Source of the DNA: a virus
Lineage: Duplodnaviria > Heunggongvirae > Uroviricota > Caudoviricetes
Strand: one strand, 5' to 3'
Virus record (IMG/VR): IMGVR_UViG_2690316316_000017
Location: 1 to 19,353 of that record
Length of the DNA stretch: 19,353 nucleotides
How positions within the stretch are numbered: the first letter of the stretch is position 1; every line of letters starts with the position of its first letter. Of the stretch, positions 1 through 19,353 are shown one piece after another. Made by a program: the position numbers and the translations under genes. The notes below the pieces were generated by a model. The model did not search any database and was not told the origin of the DNA. It saw nothing but the letters and a program-made list of their open reading frames with translations.

Positions 1-168
1 TCAAGCATTATGCAGGCTGTTTCTTTTTATCACCGGCCACAGCAATACCACAATGCCGCAGACCAGCACCCCATCCGCCAGCACCGACATGATTCTGGTG
101 GTGAAATCCACCATCACCACCAGAAACAGCAGGAGTGCAGCCACAGCCAGGCGCAGTTTTACCGTCAC
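1..168 (-). CDS. small hydrophobic protein, about 55 aa, probable membrane peptide (GTG start)
   Basis: Hand translation of the minus strand: GTG at 168-166 overlaps the TGA stop of the upstream TerB-like gene (GTGA), GGAG lies about 10 nt upstream, and the product VTVKLRLAVAALLLFLVVMVDFTTRIMSVLADGVLVCGIVVLLWPVIKRNSLHNA is strongly hydrophobic. Not in the ORF track (below size cut-off, non-ATG start). The track ORF 8..295 is a different frame. Confidence 0.3.
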   Translation of the reverse strand: MTVKLRLAVAALLLFLVVMVDFTTRIMSVLADGVLVCGIVVLLWPVIKRNSLHNA

Positions 169-596
169 AGGTGATTCTCCAGACGAAGACCCAGAACACC
201 GGCAATCTCTTCCAGCACCTTGCGCTCTTCCGGCTCAATTTCGCCGTCTGCCTCCGCAATGGCCACCGCCACATCCAGCACATCTTCCGCTTCACGCGTA
301 TCGTGTTTCACATCCTCAATCTCGCGTAACGCGGCACGACGACCAATTTTAAAATTGGTATCCAGCTGACCGATAATGGTTGCGCTAATCGCATTAATTT
401 CCGAGGTAAACGCAGACAACGCAGGCTGATTACGTAAGACCTGTTCGATCTTCGCTTTCTCGGATGCCTCGCATTCACCATCTGCATAGGCCACCAGGTA
501 TGCAGCGTTAATCACCGCCTGTGCCAGATCGCGTTTCTCAAACTTTTTAATTTCCGCTGCCGCTCTGCGGGTTTTCTTTTTGAAGATTCCAAACAT
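165..596 (-). CDS. TerB-family (tellurite-resistance-like) protein, about 143 aa
   Basis: Track ORF 165..668 trimmed to the internal ATG at 596 (MFGIFKKK...), which has AGGAA 9 nt upstream. Two repeats of the acidic A-x-ADG-E motif (LVAYADGECEASE, IAEADGEIEPEE) are typical of the TerB fold. Family assignment is from motif recollection only. Confidence 0.55.
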   Translation of the reverse strand: MFGIFKKKTRRAAAEIKKFEKRDLAQAVINAAYLVAYADGECEASEKAKIEQVLRNQPALSAFTSEINAISATIIGQLDTNFKIGRRAALREIEDVKHDTREAEDVLDVAVAIAEADGEIEPEERKVLEEIAGVLGLRLENHL

Positions 597-765
597 CGTG
601 ACGTTCCTTTGGGTGGGTGAGCCAACGCCCGGGAGCGATCTGCCCACAGAGAAAGTCACACTGACCACTCCGTAAGCTCACCCCCGAAAGGCTCTGTGGT
701 TGATATGCGCCGGGCGTGGCGCAGATACAAAAAAGGCCCGCCGAAGCGAGCCTGGAAAATAAGTG

Positions 766-922: not shown

Positions 923-998
923 TGGTGGCCCTTGCTGGATTTGAACCAGCGACCTGGCGATTATGAGTCACTCGCTCTCACCACTGAGCTAAAGGGCC
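923..998 (-). tRNA. tRNA with CAU anticodon, most likely tRNA-Ile2 (lysidine type, ileX/ileZ-like), 76 nt
   Basis: Reverse complement GGCCCTTTAGCTCAGTGGTGAGAGCGAGTGACTCATAATCGCCAGGTCGCTGGTTCAAATCCAGCAAGGGCCACCA: acceptor GGCCCTT/AAGGGCC, anticodon loop CTCATAA, T arm GCTGG-TTCAAAT-CCAGC, CCA end. Closely resembles E. coli tRNA-Ile2 as I recall it. Met versus Ile2 cannot be settled from the anticodon alone. Confidence 0.75.
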
Positions 999-1038: not shown

Positions 1039-2097
1039 TCACTCTCTCTTTCTGATTAAATTCTGTACATCCCTTGCGGTCTGCTCAAAACGTCCGGTCT
1101 CCAGCTCAACGCCAATTGCACGACGCCCCAGTGCATTCGCTGCTTTGACTGTCGAACCGGACCCCATGAAGAAATCTGCAACCAGGTCTCCCGGACGACT
1201 GCTGGCGGTAATCATTTGCCGCAACATATCTGCCGATTTTTCACAGGGATGTTTGCCCGGATAATACTGCACAGGCTTGTGCGTCCAGACATCCGTATAA
1301 GGAACGGCTGCCGATACGGAAAAATAACGCCGCAGTGATTTGTACTCTTCCAGCAGGCTGGCATACTGCCGGTTCAGCTCACTGTATGTGCTGACCAGTT
1401 GGTGATGTGGCTTTTCCAGTTCACCCCGCTGATGTTTCTCTTCTGCCACCCGGGCAAACAGCACCTGAAGTTTTCTGTAATCATCCTCGTTCGGTAACTG
1501 CCACTGGCTGGCACTGAACCAGTGCGACACCATGTTTTTCTTTCCTGTGGCATCCACAATCTGTTTTGCCGTTATCCCCAGAGCAGCACGCGCATCACGA
1601 AAGTAAGAAATCAGCGGGGCCATCACATGCTGTTTCAGTGCCCTGCCCTTCGCCTCATACCCGGCATCTTTCGGGCGATATGGCCCCTGGTAATGTTCAG
1701 CAAACAGAACGCGCTCTGTGGCAGGAAAATATGCGCGCAGACGTTCTTTATTACACCCATTCCAACGTCCGGACGGCTTCGCCCAGATGATATGGTTAAG
1801 CACGTTGAAACGTTCACGCATCATGATCTCAATATCAGATGCCAGGCGATGCCCACAGAACAGGTAAAGGCTTCCGGCAGGTTTTAACACCCGCCAGAAC
1901 TGGGCCAGACAGTGGTCCAGCCACTTAAGGTAATCTTCGTCCCCTTTCCACTGATTGTCCCAACCGTTGGGTTTCACCTTGAAGTAAGGCGGATCGGTAA
2001 CAATCAGGTCAATGGAATCATCAGGCAGGGACTGAATAAAATGCAGGCAATCAGCGTTGATTAAATCAACACTGTTTATTTTTACAGTATTTTTCAT
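1039..2097 (-). CDS. site-specific DNA methyltransferase (N6-adenine/N4-cytosine class, DPPY motif), likely orphan phage MTase
   Basis: 352-aa ORF with IVTDPPYF near the N-terminus and FMGSGST (FxGxG AdoMet motif) near the C-terminus, the order expected for beta-class amino-MTases. No adjacent restriction endonuclease gene. Confidence 0.8.
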   Translation of the reverse strand: MKNTVKINSVDLINADCLHFIQSLPDDSIDLIVTDPPYFKVKPNGWDNQWKGDEDYLKWLDHCLAQFWRVLKPAGSLYLFCGHRLASDIEIMMRERFNVLNHIIWAKPSGRWNGCNKERLRAYFPATERVLFAEHYQGPYRPKDAGYEAKGRALKQHVMAPLISYFRDARAALGITAKQIVDATGKKNMVSHWFSASQWQLPNEDDYRKLQVLFARVAEEKHQRGELEKPHHQLVSTYSELNRQYASLLEEYKSLRRYFSVSAAVPYTDVWTHKPVQYYPGKHPCEKSADMLRQMITASSRPGDLVADFFMGSGSTVKAANALGRRAIGVELETGRFEQTARDVQNLIRKRE

Positions 2098-2451: not shown

Positions 2452-2573
2452 GTCTTTTTCCCTTCTGGTTAACATGACATACCAATAACTCTTGTCTAAA
2501 AAGCCAGCAAGATAAAAAGTCAGTATTCACGACCACCAGCGTGTTTACTGTACTGCACCAAGTTTACAGGTAC

Positions 2574-2594
2574 AAAAAACCGCTCGACGGCGGG
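2574..2594 (-). terminator. short intrinsic terminator on the minus strand (candidate tR'-like late-operon terminator)
   Basis: Minus-strand RNA CCGC-CGUCGA-GCGG followed by UUUUUU (plus-strand A6 at 2574-2579). The stem is only 4 bp, so it is weak. Confidence 0.35.
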
Positions 2595-2728
2595 TTTAAG
2601 CTGTGTGGCGAAGTAACCACTCTTAACAGATTAAGATAAAATTTGCGGACCGCGGTAATTTTTTTTGCTAAATTAAAGCCATATAAAAATAAGCCCCATA
2701 AGAAATTATTAGCATACTAAGGTTTAGC

Positions 2729-3670
2729 ATGGCTACTATTGCGCAATCAAAGAAACAAAAAAAACTTAAAATTGGTTTTTACACCAGCAGTTCTGGGACT
2801 ATCCGCAGCCATTCAGTTGCTAAGCAAGCAATTGAAAATCTGTATAATACTTGCGTAACCGTTACGAATAATCATTTTGATACCATCTATAGAAATAAAA
2901 AGTTAAAAATAGCTTTTATAAATAAAGATACAAAAGCTAAATATTTCTTCGGCTACATGTCATGCTCACGAGAAGAGTATCTCCTTCCTTATATTGGTGA
3001 TGAACACTGGAATGAGCACAACATACCACTAGATGATAAAAAATACATAGTCGAAAGAACCTATTTTTTATATTATTACGATAGTGATATTTTAATATTA
3101 ACTCAAAATCATCTTGGGCCGAAAGAATCGGATTTAGCTTATCTGCTTTACAGCCAGAGTGGTAATCCTGGAAATAACTTTGCATTCCAAGCCATCTGGA
3201 AAAAAGAGAGCGTCAAAGAGCTACTTGAAACAGGAAGTACTTTGAGAAGTTGTGATATTGTCCTGGCTGCTCCCAGGAACTTTGATGCAACAAATTACCA
3301 GCTAAATAGTTCATTTTCTAAGGAACTGGTAAATATGATGGTAGGGCTGGGTGGAACACGTCTCAAGTTAAATCTAAGGGGACGTGCATCAGGGAGAGTA
3401 AAAGTCAAAGGTTATTTATCAGATCTCGTTAAGGATGGTATTAAAGAACTCCTTGAAAAAATGCCGGGAATTGTAAAAAAAGCGGCAGTAACACAGCCCA
3501 AAAATACCGTTGAACAAAGTCTTCTTGATCAGGTACTCATTTCAGAAAAAAACATATATACCGTTAATGGTTATGGCACTGATAGTGATGTTCTGCAAGC
3601 CATGATTTCTGCTAAAATTGATAACAATGAATACCTTAAGCAATACGATATCAGCAAAAAGAAGGTATAG
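2729..3670 (+). CDS. hypothetical 313-aa soluble protein, first gene of the AT-rich two-gene cassette
   Basis: Long ORF with AAGG 6 nt upstream of the ATG. AT-rich codon usage unlike the flanking phage genes. Opposite strand to Q and the late genes. No catalytic motif recognised. Confidence 0.75.
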   Translation: MATIAQSKKQKKLKIGFYTSSSGTIRSHSVAKQAIENLYNTCVTVTNNHFDTIYRNKKLKIAFINKDTKAKYFFGYMSCSREEYLLPYIGDEHWNEHNIPLDDKKYIVERTYFLYYYDSDILILTQNHLGPKESDLAYLLYSQSGNPGNNFAFQAIWKKESVKELLETGSTLRSCDIVLAAPRNFDATNYQLNSSFSKELVNMMVGLGGTRLKLNLRGRASGRVKVKGYLSDLVKDGIKELLEKMPGIVKKAAVTQPKNTVEQSLLDQVLISEKNIYTVNGYGTDSDVLQAMISAKIDNNEYLKQYDISKKKV

Positions 3671-3673
3671 GAT

Positions 3674-4117
3674 ATGTTATTGAAATACTTAAGAAACCTG
3701 ATTGTAAGTGTTTTTTGCACCTTGTTCCTACTGAGGTATATCCCTCAGATGGGGCATGCTGACATACTTACAGCCTCCGGGGTTATTTCAACTGTATCCG
3801 GTATTTTATTTGGTTTTATTTTAGCCACAATATCAATTTTTAGTGCTGCTAGCGAAAACTCAAATGGAATAATAAAAGCATTAAAAAACAACAACATACT
3901 TCAAGTTATTATTGTAAATCTATTAACCGCAGGTGCATCTTTAATTACGGCATGCGTTATTGCTTTGATAGCAATGTTTGCCAATGAAAAGACATTGTTA
4001 CATGGAGAAAAAATAGAATTTATTTTAATTATCGAATCGTTATCTCTTCTTATCATTTCAGTAATAACTTTTGCCTTTACATGGAGAAAAGTAAACTGGA
4101 TACTCCCCCACATTTAA
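3674..4117 (+). CDS. hypothetical 147-aa multi-pass membrane protein (3-4 predicted TM helices), second gene of the cassette
   Basis: Starts 4 nt after the upstream stop. Hydrophobic stretches LIVSVFCTLFLL, ILTASGVISTVSGILFGFILATISIFSAA, ILQVIIVNLLTAGASLITACVIALIAMF, IEFILIIESLSLLIISVITFAFTW. Ends directly at the terminator. Confidence 0.7.
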   Translation: MLLKYLRNLIVSVFCTLFLLRYIPQMGHADILTASGVISTVSGILFGFILATISIFSAASENSNGIIKALKNNNILQVIIVNLLTAGASLITACVIALIAMFANEKTLLHGEKIEFILIIESLSLLIISVITFAFTWRKVNWILPHI

Positions 4118-4140
4118 AAAGGGCAGAAATGCCCTTTTTT
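4116..4140. terminator. bidirectional rho-independent terminator between the cassette and Q
   Basis: AAAAAGGGCA-GAAA-TGCCCTTTTTT: perfect GC-rich stem flanked by an A-run and a T-run, abutting the cassette stop (4117) and the Q stop (4141). Confidence 0.7.
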
Positions 4141-4503
4141 CTACTCCATTTCAAGTTTAACATCCAGCATTGAAAGGCATCCATCAATAAACCCTTCAGC
4201 CATCTGTATCTCTATACGTATCAATTTCTCATCTTTTTTGCGAGCTCTTGCAAGCTTTCTTTTCGAGATGCCATACAGGTAATGGGCCACAATCAAAGAA
4301 TGCTCGTACGGTTTTCGCTTTTTAAGAAGAGCAAGACAACCTTCAATAATTAATGCATCACTATCTGAACAAGCCTGACGTGTTTTGCTTGTATAGGGAA
4401 GAAGCCCTTTAAACCCAGCAGCTATAGGAGAATAGTCTACTCCTGAACTATCACTCGCCGCCCATGCTCCCCAACGATCCAGAACCATTTGAATATCACG
4501 CAT
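4141..4503 (-). CDS. late-gene antitermination protein Q (short QuuD-like type), about 120 aa
   Basis: N-terminus MRDIQMVLDRWGAWAA... matches my recollection of DLP12 QuuD-type Q proteins. The track ORF starts at TTG 4518; the ATG at 4503 has GGAG 8 nt upstream. Sits at the end of the nin-like region, as Q does. Confidence 0.75.
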   Translation of the reverse strand: MRDIQMVLDRWGAWAASDSSGVDYSPIAAGFKGLLPYTSKTRQACSDSDALIIEGCLALLKKRKPYEHSLIVAHYLYGISKRKLARARKKDEKLIRIEIQMAEGFIDGCLSMLDVKLEME

Positions 4504-4520
4504 CAACTTTCTCCACAAAA

Positions 4521-6346: not shown

Positions 6347-6736
6347 TCAGGCGGCTGCACCCGCCGTTTTCTCGTACTTACTGATAGTGATCTCGACCTT
6401 CCCTTTCGGGATAACCGGTCCCCACTCCACCAGCATTCTTTTCACCTGACTGTCGTCTTCCCACACACCCGCGTGGGTCAGGGCGTCAAACAGCGCCTTG
6501 TTATAGTTGTCCAGATCGCGGATCCTGTTATCCGGAGGAAACAACACGATCTCCACTGAAGCAGGTGCCGACGTTGGTTTCGGCAGACGACGTAACTGCT
6601 CAATGATGGCGGCACACGCCGCGCTCTGAAATTTTCGCCCCGCCTCGCTTATCAGGCTCTTACCAGCAAATGCCCCTTTGTTGGGGTGTCGCCAGTACGT
6701 GTTCACGCTGGGCGGAAAAGGCAGTATTAGCTTCAT
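6347..6736 (-). CDS. rusA: RusA-family Holliday-junction resolvase (crossover junction endodeoxyribonuclease)
   Basis: 129 aa with N-terminal MKLILPFPPSVNTYW and acidic residues in the DLDNYNKALFDAL block, typical of RusA. ATGA overlap with the upstream MTase stop. Confidence 0.85.
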   Translation of the reverse strand: MKLILPFPPSVNTYWRHPNKGAFAGKSLISEAGRKFQSAACAAIIEQLRRLPKPTSAPASVEIVLFPPDNRIRDLDNYNKALFDALTHAGVWEDDSQVKRMLVEWGPVIPKGKVEITISKYEKTAGAAA

Positions 6737-7386
6737 GCCACCATCTCCCTGACCAGTTTTTCCGCCTGCTGGCGAACCTGCGCCAGAAATGCCTCACCAC
6801 ATGCCTCAAGTTCATCGCGCCCGATGTAGCTGATTGCCGGTCCCTTCCAGGTCTTGTCGAAAACAGCAATAGCACCAGCGAAGAAAGCACCTGTTGGCAC
6901 CTGCTTTTCGTCTTTCGGGATAAACCAGGCAGGCAGTTCAAAACCAATACGCCCGCGAATAAAAGCAATATGATCTGCACCTTCCGGCCACCACACTTCG
7001 CCGGTGGCAGCTTTGATCAGGAAAACATAGCGCCCGCCTTTATCACGCATGGCACTGGCATGCTTCATGATGTAACGCATGCCGGTGATGTATTGCCCCT
7101 CATGCTGACTGGCGCGGCTGTACGGGGGATTGCCAAAGGCAGCACCTTTAAGCTCCGCAAGACGTTCTGACCAGTCATGCGCCAGCGCGTTGTCTTCCGC
7201 CGTGTAATACGCGGCACATTTGGCGTTATCACCGTCAGTGAACAGATCCAGAACAAACGGACCAAACAAGGTGTTAATTCCCCAGAAAATGTTGTCCGGC
7301 GTGCGCCACTGATCGCCCACTTCCTTCAGTTCATGGGCTGGTTTGTTCCGCAGTTCTACCAGCGCCTGGCAATATTTATTACTCAT
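6733..7386 (-). CDS. phage Dam-like N6-adenine DNA methyltransferase
   Basis: 217 aa with the catalytic motif NPPY (GAAFGNPPYSRA), matching the phage N-6-adenine-methyltransferase family. Lies between the replication gene and rusA, as in other lambdoid phages. Confidence 0.8.
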   Translation of the reverse strand: MSNKYCQALVELRNKPAHELKEVGDQWRTPDNIFWGINTLFGPFVLDLFTDGDNAKCAAYYTAEDNALAHDWSERLAELKGAAFGNPPYSRASQHEGQYITGMRYIMKHASAMRDKGGRYVFLIKAATGEVWWPEGADHIAFIRGRIGFELPAWFIPKDEKQVPTGAFFAGAIAVFDKTWKGPAISYIGRDELEACGEAFLAQVRQQAEKLVREMVA

Positions 7387-9722: not shown

Positions 9723-10376
9723 ATGATGAACATGAGTGATCGTATTCGCCAAAGGCGAAAAGAACTGAACCTGACACAACAAGCACTGGCTGATTTGACT
9801 GGTGTGAACCGTGTCACGGTTACTGGATGGGAAAAGGACGACTACCAACCAAATGGAGCCAACCTTCAAGCCCTAGCCAACGCACTTAAATGCGATCCTC
9901 TGTGGCTTGTTAGCGGAAAAGGCTCGCCTGAACCAAAGATAAATCTAAAACCTGAAATATTCGCAGTTAAAAAAGTCCCCCTAATCTCGTGGGTTCAGGC
10001 GGGTTCATGGACAATGACGGAGCCTGGTGTCAGGAAAGAAGATGCTGAAGAGTGGGTTTATACTACCGCCCTTGTATCAGAAATGGCATTTGCACTACGG
10101 GTCCGTGGTGATTCAATGACCAATCCCCTCGGCTCACCATCGATACCAGAAGGTTCTATCGTTATCGTAGAGCCAGATATTATTGATACAGAGTGTATTA
10201 ACGGAAAAATCGTTGTTGCCCATATCAATGGTGGGCAAGAAGCGACACTCAAAAAATTTGTTGAGGACTGGCCGAACAGGTATCTCGTCCCACTAAATCC
10301 TAACTATAAAACTATTGAATGCGGTGAGAACTGCAGAATAGTTGGTCTTGTCAAACAAGTAATAATGGATTTTTGA
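9723..10376 (+). CDS. cI-type prophage repressor (HTH_XRE N-terminal domain plus LexA-like S24 autopeptidase domain)
   Basis: 217 aa. HTH LTQQALADLTGVNRVTVTGWE. Catalytic Ser in RVRGDSMTNP and Lys in GQEATLKKF, the Ser-Lys dyad of SOS-cleavable repressors. Divergent from cro. Confidence 0.9.
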   Translation: MMNMSDRIRQRRKELNLTQQALADLTGVNRVTVTGWEKDDYQPNGANLQALANALKCDPLWLVSGKGSPEPKINLKPEIFAVKKVPLISWVQAGSWTMTEPGVRKEDAEEWVYTTALVSEMAFALRVRGDSMTNPLGSPSIPEGSIVIVEPDIIDTECINGKIVVAHINGGQEATLKKFVEDWPNRYLVPLNPNYKTIECGENCRIVGLVKQVIMDF

Positions 10377-16763: not shown

Positions 16764-16799
16764 TTTTCCCGGGTGCAGCCGGTTTTGATGGAGAAAATT

Positions 16800-17081
16800 A
16801 TGAACACCTTGTTTTTACTGATGGCTGAATTCAATACCCCTAACATTGAACTCTCAGCAGTTAGCCAAAAGTACTTTGGCATGAGTCCAGCCACGGCAGA
16901 AGCAAAAGCAAACGCTTGTAAGTTGCCCGTTCCAACATATCGCATCGGCACATCACAAAAAGCAAAACGTTGCATCAATATTCAGGATCTTGCGGAATAC
17001 ATAGACAAAAGACGAGAAGAAGGACGTATCGAGTGGGAACAGGTCAGAACAGGCAAACAGAAGGGCAAAGAACATCACTAA
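16800..17081 (+). CDS. PrtN-family DNA-binding protein (putative excisionase-like regulator), about 93 aa
   Basis: Track ORF 16773..17081 trimmed to the ATG at 16800, which has GGAGA 5 nt upstream. N-terminus MNTLFLLMAEF resembles PrtN/excisionase-like proteins (recollection). Last gene of the operon. Confidence 0.5.
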   Translation: MNTLFLLMAEFNTPNIELSAVSQKYFGMSPATAEAKANACKLPVPTYRIGTSQKAKRCINIQDLAEYIDKRREEGRIEWEQVRTGKQKGKEHH

Positions 17082-17083
17082 AG

Positions 17084-17110
17084 AAAAAACCCGCCTAAAG
17101 GCGGGTTTTC
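17084..17110. terminator. bidirectional rho-independent terminator
   Basis: AAAAAA-CCCGCC-TAAA-GGCGGG-TTTTC between the convergent genes ending at 17081 (plus) and 17129 (minus). Confidence 0.7.
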
Positions 17111-17128
17111 AAAAAGCACCAGCTATGA

Positions 17129-17302
17129 TCATGCTGCTTTGCGACGACGAAGCTTACCCTGCTGCTCTTTACCAGAGACAGTAGCGTGAGTGAACGCATT
17201 AGGAGCAGCCTTCATCAGAACTTCAACAGCAGCACCCATACCTGCGAATGCTTTCATTGTGTCGAACTTAACCTGTGGCTTGGTTGCTTTTTGATCTTTC
17301 AT
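17129..17302 (-). CDS. small protein, 57 aa, unknown function
   Basis: Hand translation: ATG at 17302 with GGGAG 6 nt upstream; product MKDQKATKPQVKFDTMKAFAGMGAAVEVLMKAAPNAFTHATVSGKEQQGKLRRRKAA. Codon choice (CGT, GGT, GCT, CTG, AAA) resembles highly expressed E. coli genes. Not in the ORF track. Confidence 0.45.
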   Translation of the reverse strand: MKDQKATKPQVKFDTMKAFAGMGAAVEVLMKAAPNAFTHATVSGKEQQGKLRRRKAA

Positions 17303-17498
17303 AGAAAACTCCCGAGACAGTAAAGGCGTCTCTAACCCTCTCTTTAAAGCTAGCTTGTTTCGCTAACTTATGCCAATCGATCATGTCGATTGGTGACATC
17401 GTTTCTTAGTAGTTTAAGCACAAAACGACTGCCATAGATGTACCTTTAAGGTAATCTGGACGGGTATCCTACAATTTGTAGCCCCTTCTCGTCTATAC

Positions 17499-18035
17499 CT
17501 ACTGAGCAAATTTAAGAAAGATATCCTGCAGCTCATCAATGACTGCAGACATCACATAACCGCACTGTTCCATGCGGAAACCAAAAGACTCGTAATACTG
17601 CACCAGTTCTGGTACTGGCTCTACAATGTGGACAACTTTACATTCAACAGCTTTACAAAATATAAAAGCACTCATAAGAGTGAGTAAAACCATGCGCCCT
17701 TTCAATGGGTGAGATTCATCTTCTCTAGAAAACCTTTCGATCATATGGATACGAAAGATGTTTTCTTCAACCCCATAAACACAAATTGCTGCTCCTGATG
17801 GTATTCCCTGAACCCGACCTTGCTGAACAAGTTTTATGCAGAACTCATACTTTTCTCTGGAGTTGCCATAGGTGCTTAACGCATAGTCCCATTCAAGCTC
17901 ACCATAGCCACCACACAGAATCTTGTAATCATCATCACTGAGCGGACCAACAGCAAGAGGTAAGCCGACATGATCAATAATCAACTGGATATTGTTACGT
18001 ACAGATTGACCTATCTCGTCTAGGGTAAGCATCAT
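17499..18035 (-). CDS. hypothetical 178-aa protein, possibly GNAT-fold acetyltransferase-like
   Basis: Track ORF. C-terminal ...VPELVQYYESFGFRME resembles the GNAT beta6-alpha4 region, but no clear acetyl-CoA motif A is present. AT-rich codon usage. Confidence 0.45.
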   Translation of the reverse strand: MMLTLDEIGQSVRNNIQLIIDHVGLPLAVGPLSDDDYKILCGGYGELEWDYALSTYGNSREKYEFCIKLVQQGRVQGIPSGAAICVYGVEENIFRIHMIERFSREDESHPLKGRMVLLTLMSAFIFCKAVECKVVHIVEPVPELVQYYESFGFRMEQCGYVMSAVIDELQDIFLKFAQ

Positions 18036-18574
18036 AGACTCTCAAGCGGAACACTAAAAATCTCATTATATCTCATTCTGATGCCCCGCATGGATTACAC
18101 CTTGAAATGAAAACACCGGGTTCCCAATAGGCACCCACAAAGTGTATAACTACTTGTTTTTCAAAAGCGGTACATCCTATCGAGCATTGGTGCAACGCTA
18201 AACCGACCACTCCAGTGAACGTCAGTTTTTTCAGGCATTGCGCTGGTTTGGTTGATTTTTTGCATTTCAGAATTACCGTGCATTTTCAAATGTAGAGATT
18301 ATTTTATCGATATATCATGGGTTTATGTTATTCAGCATCACTATTCAGGAGGCTCAATAGCGGGGTACTATACCATAACAACAGGAAGCGCCTGTCTCAT
18401 TGCAAAAGAAAATTGAGATCCTCTCAAGGCATGAAGCTCTCACGAAGTGATGGAAATAATCTTATTAGCCGTTAACTTTGTTAAGGCCAATGATAAACAA
18501 TCCAGGTTCGACGATAAATAAAAAATCACACATTAAACTCTGGTGATATATCTCCCTGCTAATAGCATTGATAG

Positions 18575-18610
18575 AGAAAAAAGAACCCAATAAATATTGG
18601 GTCCTTTTAT
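18575..18610 (-). terminator. rho-independent terminator downstream of the AT-rich right-end gene
   Basis: ACCCAATA-AA-TATTGGGT stem with T-rich tracts on both strands (minus-strand TTCTTTTTTCTC), about 45 nt after the stop at 18646. Confidence 0.5.
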
Positions 18611-18645
18611 ATAATGCCTTCCATACTATCGAAGAACTTCACATA

Positions 18646-19353
18646 TTATTTCTCCGATTTAACCCCGAACAAATCATAAATTAATTTAGAAGTGTCTGTA
18701 AGTATTTTAATCTCTTCCTTTGAGGTTGGGTCAAACGACTTCGCGAAGCTAATTAATTGTGGTGCAGCATCTCGCATTTTGCTTAAAATATCAGGATCGA
18801 GCGTTCCTTCATTCACCAGATGTGACATCTTATCCAGATAGCCATCAAAATTCATTTCTCCCCCATCAGCCAGACGCTTCATCTCTCCCAGGTACTTCTT
18901 CATATCACGTTGAGATAATTTTTCAAACTGAGCTTTCAGGTAGCTCTCATTATTTTCATTAATATACACTGTTTCTGATAAATCTGCGTAGGCACTAGAA
19001 TATGAAAGTGAAATTAACAGCGAAGCAAATAATTTTAAGCTGTTGTCATCATGTTCCTGGCAGGCATTAACAAACGTTAAAAAACCAGAACCTATTGCTT
19101 GAAAATGTATATTCGCTAAAGGTTCATTATCCTTAGATTCCTCATAAAATAGCTGAACCGTGGAGGGAAGGCCATTCTTAGTTTCTACATCAAAAGTACA
19201 TTGTTCAATGGGAGTCGCATCTTTATTATCCCCAGGATTACATATACTATTAATCGCGAAATGAAAAATAGCCCGGTCAACAACTGATGCAATAAAGTCA
19301 CGATCGTTTAAATCCTCATCAGTGCAATCGTCAATATACTTATTGACCCACAT
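18646..19353 (-). CDS. hypothetical AT-rich protein, at least 235 aa; N-terminus may lie beyond the window edge
   Basis: Track ORF running to the window end. Strongly AT-biased codons. No recognisable integrase or recombinase motifs. Confidence 0.55.
   Translation of the reverse strand: MWVNKYIDDCTDEDLNDRDFIASVVDRAIFHFAINSICNPGDNKDATPIEQCTFDVETKNGLPSTVQLFYEESKDNEPLANIHFQAIGSGFLTFVNACQEHDDNSLKLFASLLISLSYSSAYADLSETVYINENNESYLKAQFEKLSQRDMKKYLGEMKRLADGGEMNFDGYLDKMSHLVNEGTLDPDILSKMRDAAPQLISFAKSFDPTSKEEIKILTDTSKLIYDLFGVKSEK

Follow-up and report, generated by a model that had tools for sequence, protein, structure and literature searches.

A candidate RexAB-type phage-exclusion module inserted antisense between Q and the late leader of an Escherichia coli lambdoid prophage

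What is an AT-rich pair of genes doing between the antiterminator gene Q and the late leader of a lambdoid prophage, transcribed against the operon that it interrupts? The question is raised by the IMG/VR virus record IMGVR_UViG_2690316316_000017, of which the whole stretch of 19,353 nucleotides (nt; 19.3 kb) analysed here, called the window, represents the early-right and late-left portion of an Escherichia coli lambdoid prophage. The two plus-strand genes, designated A (2729..3670, 313 amino acids, aa) and B (3674..4117, 147 aa), form a cassette, and the interval under study is 100% identical to the chromosome of E. coli fS25a and 99.5% identical to the sequenced phage cdtI. We consider it likely that the two genes were acquired horizontally, are expressed in the lysogen and together make up a phage-exclusion (abortive-infection) module of RexAB type, with A as a cytoplasmic putative sensor and DNA-binding dimer and B as a putative RexB-like effector of the inner membrane. 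The preliminary description of this DNA had already proposed a two-gene plus-strand cassette of these sizes, and both open reading frames (ORFs) lie where it placed them, with RefSeq annotating both genes likewise in the 100%-identical E. coli chromosome; the intergenic gap, however, measures 3 nt (3671-3673) and not the 4 nt first given.

Protein A belongs to the Pfam family DUF6731 (PF20505), scoring 41.3 bits where the gathering threshold is 27, with an expectation value (E) of 1.8e-10, and also matches phrog_7651. Neither A nor B matches PADLOC 2.0 or NCBIfam, and DUF6731 is not mentioned in the literature searched. The AlphaFold2 model of A, with 38 homologues and a predicted local distance difference test score (pLDDT) of 81, exhibits an alternating beta-sheet/helix layout and a split two-domain organisation. 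Foldseek comparison with the PDB places lambda RexA (8TWQ) first, with an E of 2.4e-7, followed by RdgC, and A displays the split globular plus dimerisation domain fold seen in the RexA structure. RdgC was considered as the best match for A and rejected, RexA ranking clearly higher. No enzymatic or toxin motif is recognisable in A from Pfam and the PDB fold matches, in agreement with the initial remark that the large protein carries no catalytic motif, and A is without homology to metabolic or structural phage proteins. The homologues of A in vB_EcoS-716R3 (ON470622.1, L025:1481-2422) and 733R5 (ON470608.1) are labelled "portal (connector) protein"; this label is rejected because of the lack of any portal Pfam match, the DUF6731 membership and the RexA-like fold.

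A link to RexA is also visible at the level of residues and family profiles. The motif G-P-x-x-S-D-L, which the preliminary description tentatively gave as shared with RexA, is common to the two proteins, with BLASTP pairing residues 129-140 of A (LGPKESDLAYLL) with residues 108-119 of RexA (FGPTTSDLTDFL) in a short, non-significant match; its G, P, D and L positions are invariant or nearly so in both families. Residues G130, P131, D135 and L140 are invariant in the subfamily of A, and in RexA P110 is invariant, with G109 and L115 nearly invariant. An exhaustive hidden Markov model (HMM) search yields 230 clusters at 50% identity, and PF20505 is matched by 123 of 134 relatives from this search. 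Alignment of the 134-sequence DUF6731 profile with a 25-sequence RexA profile in hhalign extends over 253 columns, with an E of 4.7e-6, a probability of 86% and a score of 46.4, compared with 16.5 for the reversed and at most 21.3 for the block-permuted RexA controls. This near-full-length match above controls identifies DUF6731, and hence A, as a distant RexA homologue, making it very probable that A is a RexA-superfamily protein, and the RexAB-like architecture and possible Rex homology suggested at the outset hold at the remote-homology level only. Searching PDB sequences with HMM profiles of A missed RexA and gave weak IF3 and eIF2-alpha noise only, and a scan of genome contigs with A found three loci only.

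The small protein had been credited with three to four transmembrane (TM) helices; its nature as a multi-span membrane protein stands, and the count is now fixed at four. The hydrophobic spans of B lie at about 8-26, 30-61, 74-109 and 112-138 and coincide with those of RexB (144 aa), and its AlphaFold2 model consists of four long helices (pLDDT 84), hydropathy and model both depicting an inner-membrane protein of RexB-like build, about 145 aa long with four TM helices. BLASTP between B and RexB gives an E of 0.012 over TM1-TM2, a short and non-significant match. In hhalign, a 12-sequence profile of the partner proteins aligns with a 5-sequence RexB profile over 59 columns, comprising the end of TM1, the following loop, TM2 and the central loop, with an E of 1.4e-4 and a probability of 53%. 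The score is 31.6, whereas the reversed control scores 12.6, column-permuted controls reach no more than 16.4 and block-permuted ones no more than 24.2. PADLOC RexB matches two orthologous partners in the same register, one metagenomic (L013, E 4.6e-5) and one from Vibrio (L007, E 1.1e-3), and Pfam RexB matches one orthologous partner at an E of 0.13. Among the viral structures of BFVD, the second-best fold match of B is a 165-aa Sbash protein (E 0.064), equal in length to gp31, the validated RexB-like protein of that phage. Homology of B to RexB is plausible, and the two share size and four-TM architecture.

The pairing of the two genes is strict. An ORF of 118-153 aa directly follows A in the window, and the same is true of the A homologue at each of 13 further loci examined, which represent Escherichia, Xenorhabdus, Vibrio, a Pseudomonas phage and metagenomes, with five metagenomic DUF6731 loci showing the same pairing. 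The surroundings of the pair vary widely: in E. coli variants and Xenorhabdus stockiae it is convergent to Q, in a second Xenorhabdus locus it lies beside tail-fibre-like genes, and in Vibrio it occupies an island near toxRS or adjoins the integrase of a small tectivirus-like element. The latter case is Vibrio phage 10N.286.54.F4_PE001 (PQ189356.1, 1389-2896), a 14.6-kb Vinavirales element in which a pair of 351 aa and 150 aa stands directly after the integrase, implying that Rex-like cargo is not limited to tailed prophages. In Pseudomonas phage AUS531phi, the DUF6731 gene (Pfam E 8.6e-13; hhalign probability of 100% to the family profile) lies directly downstream of a cI-like repressor gene, so that repressor and DUF6731 pair reproduce the arrangement of lambda cI-rexA-rexB. 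The PADLOC model PDC-M67A is matched by 7 of the 134 DUF6731 relatives, with a best E of 1.6e-8, and PDC-M67B by one orthologous partner at an E of 9.7e-4, so that computational screening has already marked part of the family as candidate defence genes.

Several results weigh against a Rex assignment and have to be set beside this evidence. Pfam RexA (PF15969, E up to 10) and PADLOC RexA (E up to 1) miss A, and Pfam RexB (PF15968) and PADLOC RexB miss window B even at permissive thresholds; as a positive control, the same libraries find lambda RexA at E values of 1e-97 and 9e-110. The narrow A-subfamily profile, falling short because it is too shallow, reaches RexA only at the motif, with an E of 0.054 against the RexA profile and 0.08 against the single RexA sequence. 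Read by eye, the hhalign alignment shows no conservation of R219 and K221, which bind DNA in RexA, or of its hinge residue G140. For B, the profile link to RexB is weak, at 53% probability over 59 columns. Every match of B among the viral structures of BFVD has an E of at least 0.014, and lambda RexB is absent from its top 50 fold matches there. Consensus scanning detects no consensus sigma-70 promoter ahead of A, and for lambda Rex itself exclusion as the primary function is debated (PMC11077077).

The same results bear on a rival explanation, that the pair is a different membrane-acting moron, for example one that excludes superinfection or blocks injection, or an addiction pair of toxin-antitoxin type, with the fold of A reflecting no more than an ancient DNA-binding scaffold held in common. 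The failure of the curated Rex models on both proteins, the weak similarity of B to RexB, and the occurrence of A's fold in RdgC, CHL4 and CENP-N, which have non-defence roles, are in its favour. The matches of A to RdgC and CHL4/IML3/CENP-N are much weaker than that to RexA, and these proteins have no membrane partner and a different biology. We regard a moron of this other kind as unlikely, and a RexAB-type exclusion module as the better account.

The cassette itself is a foreign, self-contained operon. Of the AT-rich, promoter-like tract originally placed at 2600-2728, the portion 2657-2728 (plus strand, 25% GC) is cassette-specific, homology to phage 1720a-02 stopping at about 2656, whereas 2595-2656 belongs to the conserved late leader and the tract contains no consensus sigma-70 match. 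Because such a match is missing, the placing of the promoter is something that we infer: 2657-2728 presumably holds the cassette's own promoter. A presumed ribosome-binding site, AAGG, is located ahead of gene A at 2719-2722 (plus strand). At the opposite end, the perfect bidirectional terminator noted earlier beside Q is borne out by a 10-bp hairpin at 4116..4139, flanked by A and T runs and positioned between the stop codons of B and the convergent Q gene. This intrinsic terminator folds on both strands, with energies of -13.4 kcal/mol (z -4.25) on the plus strand and -13.0 kcal/mol (z -2.46) on the minus strand.

The GC content of A (35.5%) and B (32.7%) contrasts with about 50-51% in the flanks and about 50-56% in neighbouring genes, and GC content at third codon positions (GC3) is 0.30-0.31 in the two genes compared with 0.51-0.65 in six of the seven neighbours measured. 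The claim that the cassette differs in composition from all flanking genes accordingly holds for six of the seven and fails for Q, the exception, with 41.8% GC and a GC3 of 0.34; as Q itself is GC-poor, the low-GC tract reaches past the cassette.

Both genes bear the marks of constraint. Against a copy with 77% (A) and 69% (B) nucleotide identity, the proportions of nonsynonymous and synonymous differences (pN/pS) are 0.08/0.79 for A and 0.18/0.77 for B, giving ratios of about 0.1 and about 0.23 with synonymous sites saturated (pS about 0.78). Judged from these sequence comparisons, A and B are both real genes under strong purifying selection. This bears directly on the possibility that the pair is a relic, decaying or already without function, for which the failure to find a promoter ahead of A and the rarity of the cassette among complete E. 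coli genomes might be cited. Since both ORFs are intact and under such selection, the pair is conserved across genera, and copies at 99% identity occur in Citrobacter braakii and phage cdtI, decay is highly improbable, and an intact module of RexAB type remains the preferred interpretation.

The position of the cassette was resolved by comparison with an empty site. Phage 1720a-02 shares the late leader and has a Q gene 82% identical to that of the window, with no cargo between them; about 25 nt separate the stop codon of this Q from the counterpart of window position 2656. These homologous flanks indicate that the window carries a 1,484-bp insert, 2657-4140, with 34.2% GC, corroborating the proposed insertion at the junction of Q and the late operon. 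The right border is formed by Q (4141..4518, minus strand), correctly named an antiterminator gene at the start, as shown by its PF06530 match (E 5.2e-52), its phrog_79 membership and its RefSeq annotation. The start of the Q ORF is a TTG at 4518 in the mechanical call, and RefSeq gives a 366-nt gene. The left border is the conserved late-region leader (2476..2656, minus strand), defined by alignment with 1720a-02, PhiR40_1 and Ayreon. The leader contains a terminator-like site, a tR'-like hairpin at about 2566-2591 (minus strand), the equivalent of which is an annotated terminator in Ayreon. Hairpin variants across phages preserve pairing (CCGCCGTCGAGCGG, CCCGCCGCGAGCGGG and CCGCCGCTGAGCGG; 2566-2591 on the minus strand and its equivalents in loci L022, L023 and L024), and such changes fit a working terminator of tR' type, which we take to be the leader terminator of the late operon. 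The fold energy of the hairpin in the window alone is no better than that of shuffled sequences, and the late promoter PR' was not located by consensus scanning.

The Q/late-leader interval is a variable cargo hotspot, a point that the preliminary description had put forward for checking across relatives. It is empty in 1720a-02, holds other cargo in Ayreon, mEp460 and Stx2c phages, and carries the same A-B cassette, at 77% nucleotide identity, in vB_EcoS-716R3. A variant with 44% protein identity occupies the same Q-proximal spot in other E. coli prophages. The cassette is thus not universal at the junction, and it occurs in 25 of 5,426 complete E. coli genomes. PhiR40_1 carries a different, likewise antisense ORF of 148 aa at the same junction (L023:1223-1669, plus strand), with no significant Pfam match and no PADLOC match, representing a further uncharacterised cargo gene of the hotspot. 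Gene A is also present at 99% protein identity in Citrobacter braakii ATCC 51113 (NZ_NAEW01000002.1), suggesting recent cross-genus spread of the prophage or of the cassette. The cI gene lies at 9723-10376, and the cassette is outside the cI immunity region.

A location of this kind invites the explanation that the main role of the cassette is to tune the prophage's own late switch, with A acting there or convergent transcription modulating Q. There is a precedent in lambda, where RexA shifts the lysogenic-lytic (CI/Cro) switch without RexB and exclusion is perhaps a by-product (PMC11077077), and cassette and Q are transcribed towards each other, with the conserved late leader adjoining the cassette on its other side. 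Close relatives with the same Q and leader, however, lack the cassette or carry other cargo, and the strong bidirectional terminator insulates it from Q. Elsewhere the same pair adjoins cI or an integrase gene, lies close to tail genes or sits in islands that are not phage, and settings so varied argue against a function tied to the Q junction. Late-switch tuning as the main role is accordingly quite unlikely. A broader reading, which we also consider unlikely, is that DUF6731 proteins and their four-TM partners constitute a large branch of the Rex superfamily (at least 230 clusters) not linked to it before and captured in E. coli lambdoid prophages at the Q/late-leader junction, with A perhaps acting on the prophage's own late switch too, as lambda RexA does on CI/Cro, and the pair then being a dual regulator of defence and development instead of a plain abortive-infection module. 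On that reading, the branch may stand apart from lambda Rex and the actinophage systems, and perhaps also from Sucellos and RexABpp.

Returning to the exclusion module, a mechanism can be outlined by analogy with lambda Rex, Sbash, CarolAnn, RexABpp and Sucellos (PMC11077077; PMC6426596; PMC12894663; bioRxiv 10.1101/2024.07.02.601686). With its own upstream region, a bidirectional terminator and an antisense placement, the cassette would be expressed in the lysogen without depending on the late operon. By analogy with RexA, A would be a dimeric, non-specific DNA-binding clamp, which may sense a protein or a DNA-protein complex of the infecting phage and then stimulate B. Upon stimulation, B would oligomerise or open, depolarising or permeabilising the inner membrane, and the infected cell would stop growing before the incoming phage finishes its cycle, the expected outcome being an anti-phage phenotype. 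We infer each of these properties, from dimerisation and DNA binding to activation of B by A, depolarisation and expression in the lysogen, from the systems named.

The direction of signalling could in principle be reversed, following the logic of Butters gp30/gp31, with A as a toxic or antiviral effector that B sequesters until infection. In Butters the effector is the RexA-like gp30, and defence does not require gp31 (summarised in PMC12894663); A is better conserved than B (pN 0.08 compared with 0.18), and the analyses made here do not show which of the two acts on the other. Of the five Rex-like systems on record, however, four require both genes, with the membrane protein as effector, and the same is true of Sucellos; the constant company that B keeps with A at the loci examined points to B being essential, and A is without a recognisable enzymatic or toxin motif. 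The reversed arrangement is rather improbable, and activation of a membrane effector B by a sensor A remains the favoured order within the RexAB-type module.

These observations matter for the family, the phage and the locus. A RexA-like sensor provides a functional hypothesis for DUF6731, a Pfam family of unknown function that travels with a RexB-like membrane partner in every locus inspected. The cassette offers an E. coli-native, testable RexAB-type module, present in phage cdtI. To our knowledge, the trigger and mechanism of lambda Rex are still unresolved after 70 years, and divergent homologues in a tractable host give comparative leverage on that system. The Q/late-leader interval is in addition documented as a hotspot for antisense, self-contained modules.

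The remainder of the window follows the lambdoid plan, with a minus-strand gene order of cro-like, O-like, Dam-like methylase, RusA, KilA-N, DUF968/HNH and Q. Past the cassette come a small ORF, a DNA methyltransferase gene, two tRNA genes and a TerB-like gene, followed by holin and lysozyme genes in the matching genome. The late-operon methyltransferase (1039-2097, minus strand) is an N6/N4 type II-like orphan enzyme (PADLOC MTase_II, E 2.9e-153), and a Dam-like phage N6-adenine methyltransferase is encoded in the early-right operon (6733-7386, minus strand); the two may have anti-restriction or self-marking functions. The tRNA genes at 766-842 and 923-998 (both minus strand), downstream of the methyltransferase, comprise tRNA-Arg (tct) and a CAT-anticodon tRNA, called Met by ARAGORN and Ile in RefSeq, and we take the two to resemble the ileZ/arg tRNA cluster of Stx-type lambdoid phages. 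A TerB-family (tellurite-resistance-like) protein is encoded after the tRNAs (165-668, minus strand), with a DUF3927 gene adjoining in the matching genome, and is probably another moron. The region from about 16770 to 19353 contains a PrtN-family gene, two hypothetical ORFs, a truncated tRNA-dihydrouridine synthase gene (about 18179-18283) and a frameshifted DUF2713 gene; as no integrase is annotated there, the right end of the prophage may be degraded.

Comparison with known systems places the cassette closest to lambda RexA/RexB. Both are two-gene operons in the order A then B, encoding proteins of 313 and 147 aa in the window and 279 and 144 aa in lambda, and both are prophage-encoded and probably lysogen-expressed. 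The RexA fold is the best PDB match of A, the family profiles align over nearly their full length, the GPxxSDL motif is common to both, and B has four TM helices. The differences are a pairwise identity of about 10-13%, the failure of curated RexA and RexB HMMs to detect the window proteins, RexA DNA-binding and hinge residues that are not evidently conserved in A, and a site at the Q/late-leader junction with transcription against the late operon, in contrast to rex in the cI-rexA-rexB operon. By its sequence assignment, the cassette is a member of DUF6731 and not RexA/RexB as the curated models define them.

Validated systems with a Rex-like structure but divergent sequences are known. Sucellos (SclA/SclB), from the Vibrio cholerae superintegron, is a validated defence system of RexAB-like structure missed by the Rex Pfam domains, in which both genes are required, expression is from an own promoter, and SclB is a predicted pore; outside integrons it occurs mainly in enterobacterial prophages, "often in Salmonella" (bioRxiv 10.1101/2024.07.02.601686). 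This account fits the window cassette, the comparison being by description only, and A has Vibrio homologues; the Vibrio loci of the A family differ in not lying in the superintegron, and a Salmonella homologue of A is not in the hit lists. RexABpp (PP_5643/PP_5644) of Pseudomonas putida prophage P1 is a validated RexAB-like defence system recognised by structure or HHpred, and five Rex-like systems have been counted (PMC12894663). Compared by description only, RexBpp is longer than the 147-aa B, with mutations extending to residue 181, and the RexABpp pair lies near a cI-like repressor gene.

The actinobacteriophage systems Sbash gp30/gp31, CarolAnn gp44/gp43 and Butters gp30/gp31 likewise combine a cytoplasmic protein with a four-TM protein and provide prophage-expressed, heterotypic defence, in hosts of a different phylum. 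Sbash gp31 (165 aa) is a validated RexB-like protein and gp30 has been assigned to DUF4747 (PMC6426596); the Pfam search made here gave no DUF4747 match for gp30, and the A and B family profiles gave no hhalign signal against the single sequences of gp30 and gp31. PDC-M67, an unvalidated candidate not mentioned in the literature searched, differs in that window A and B match no PADLOC 2.0 model. Against this background, three things are new, namely the E. coli member in phage cdtI, its placement at the Q/late-leader junction and the explicit connection of DUF6731 with RexA, and the kind of system is already known; as a very distant relative of RexA/RexB, the cassette is a credible candidate anti-phage module of that kind.

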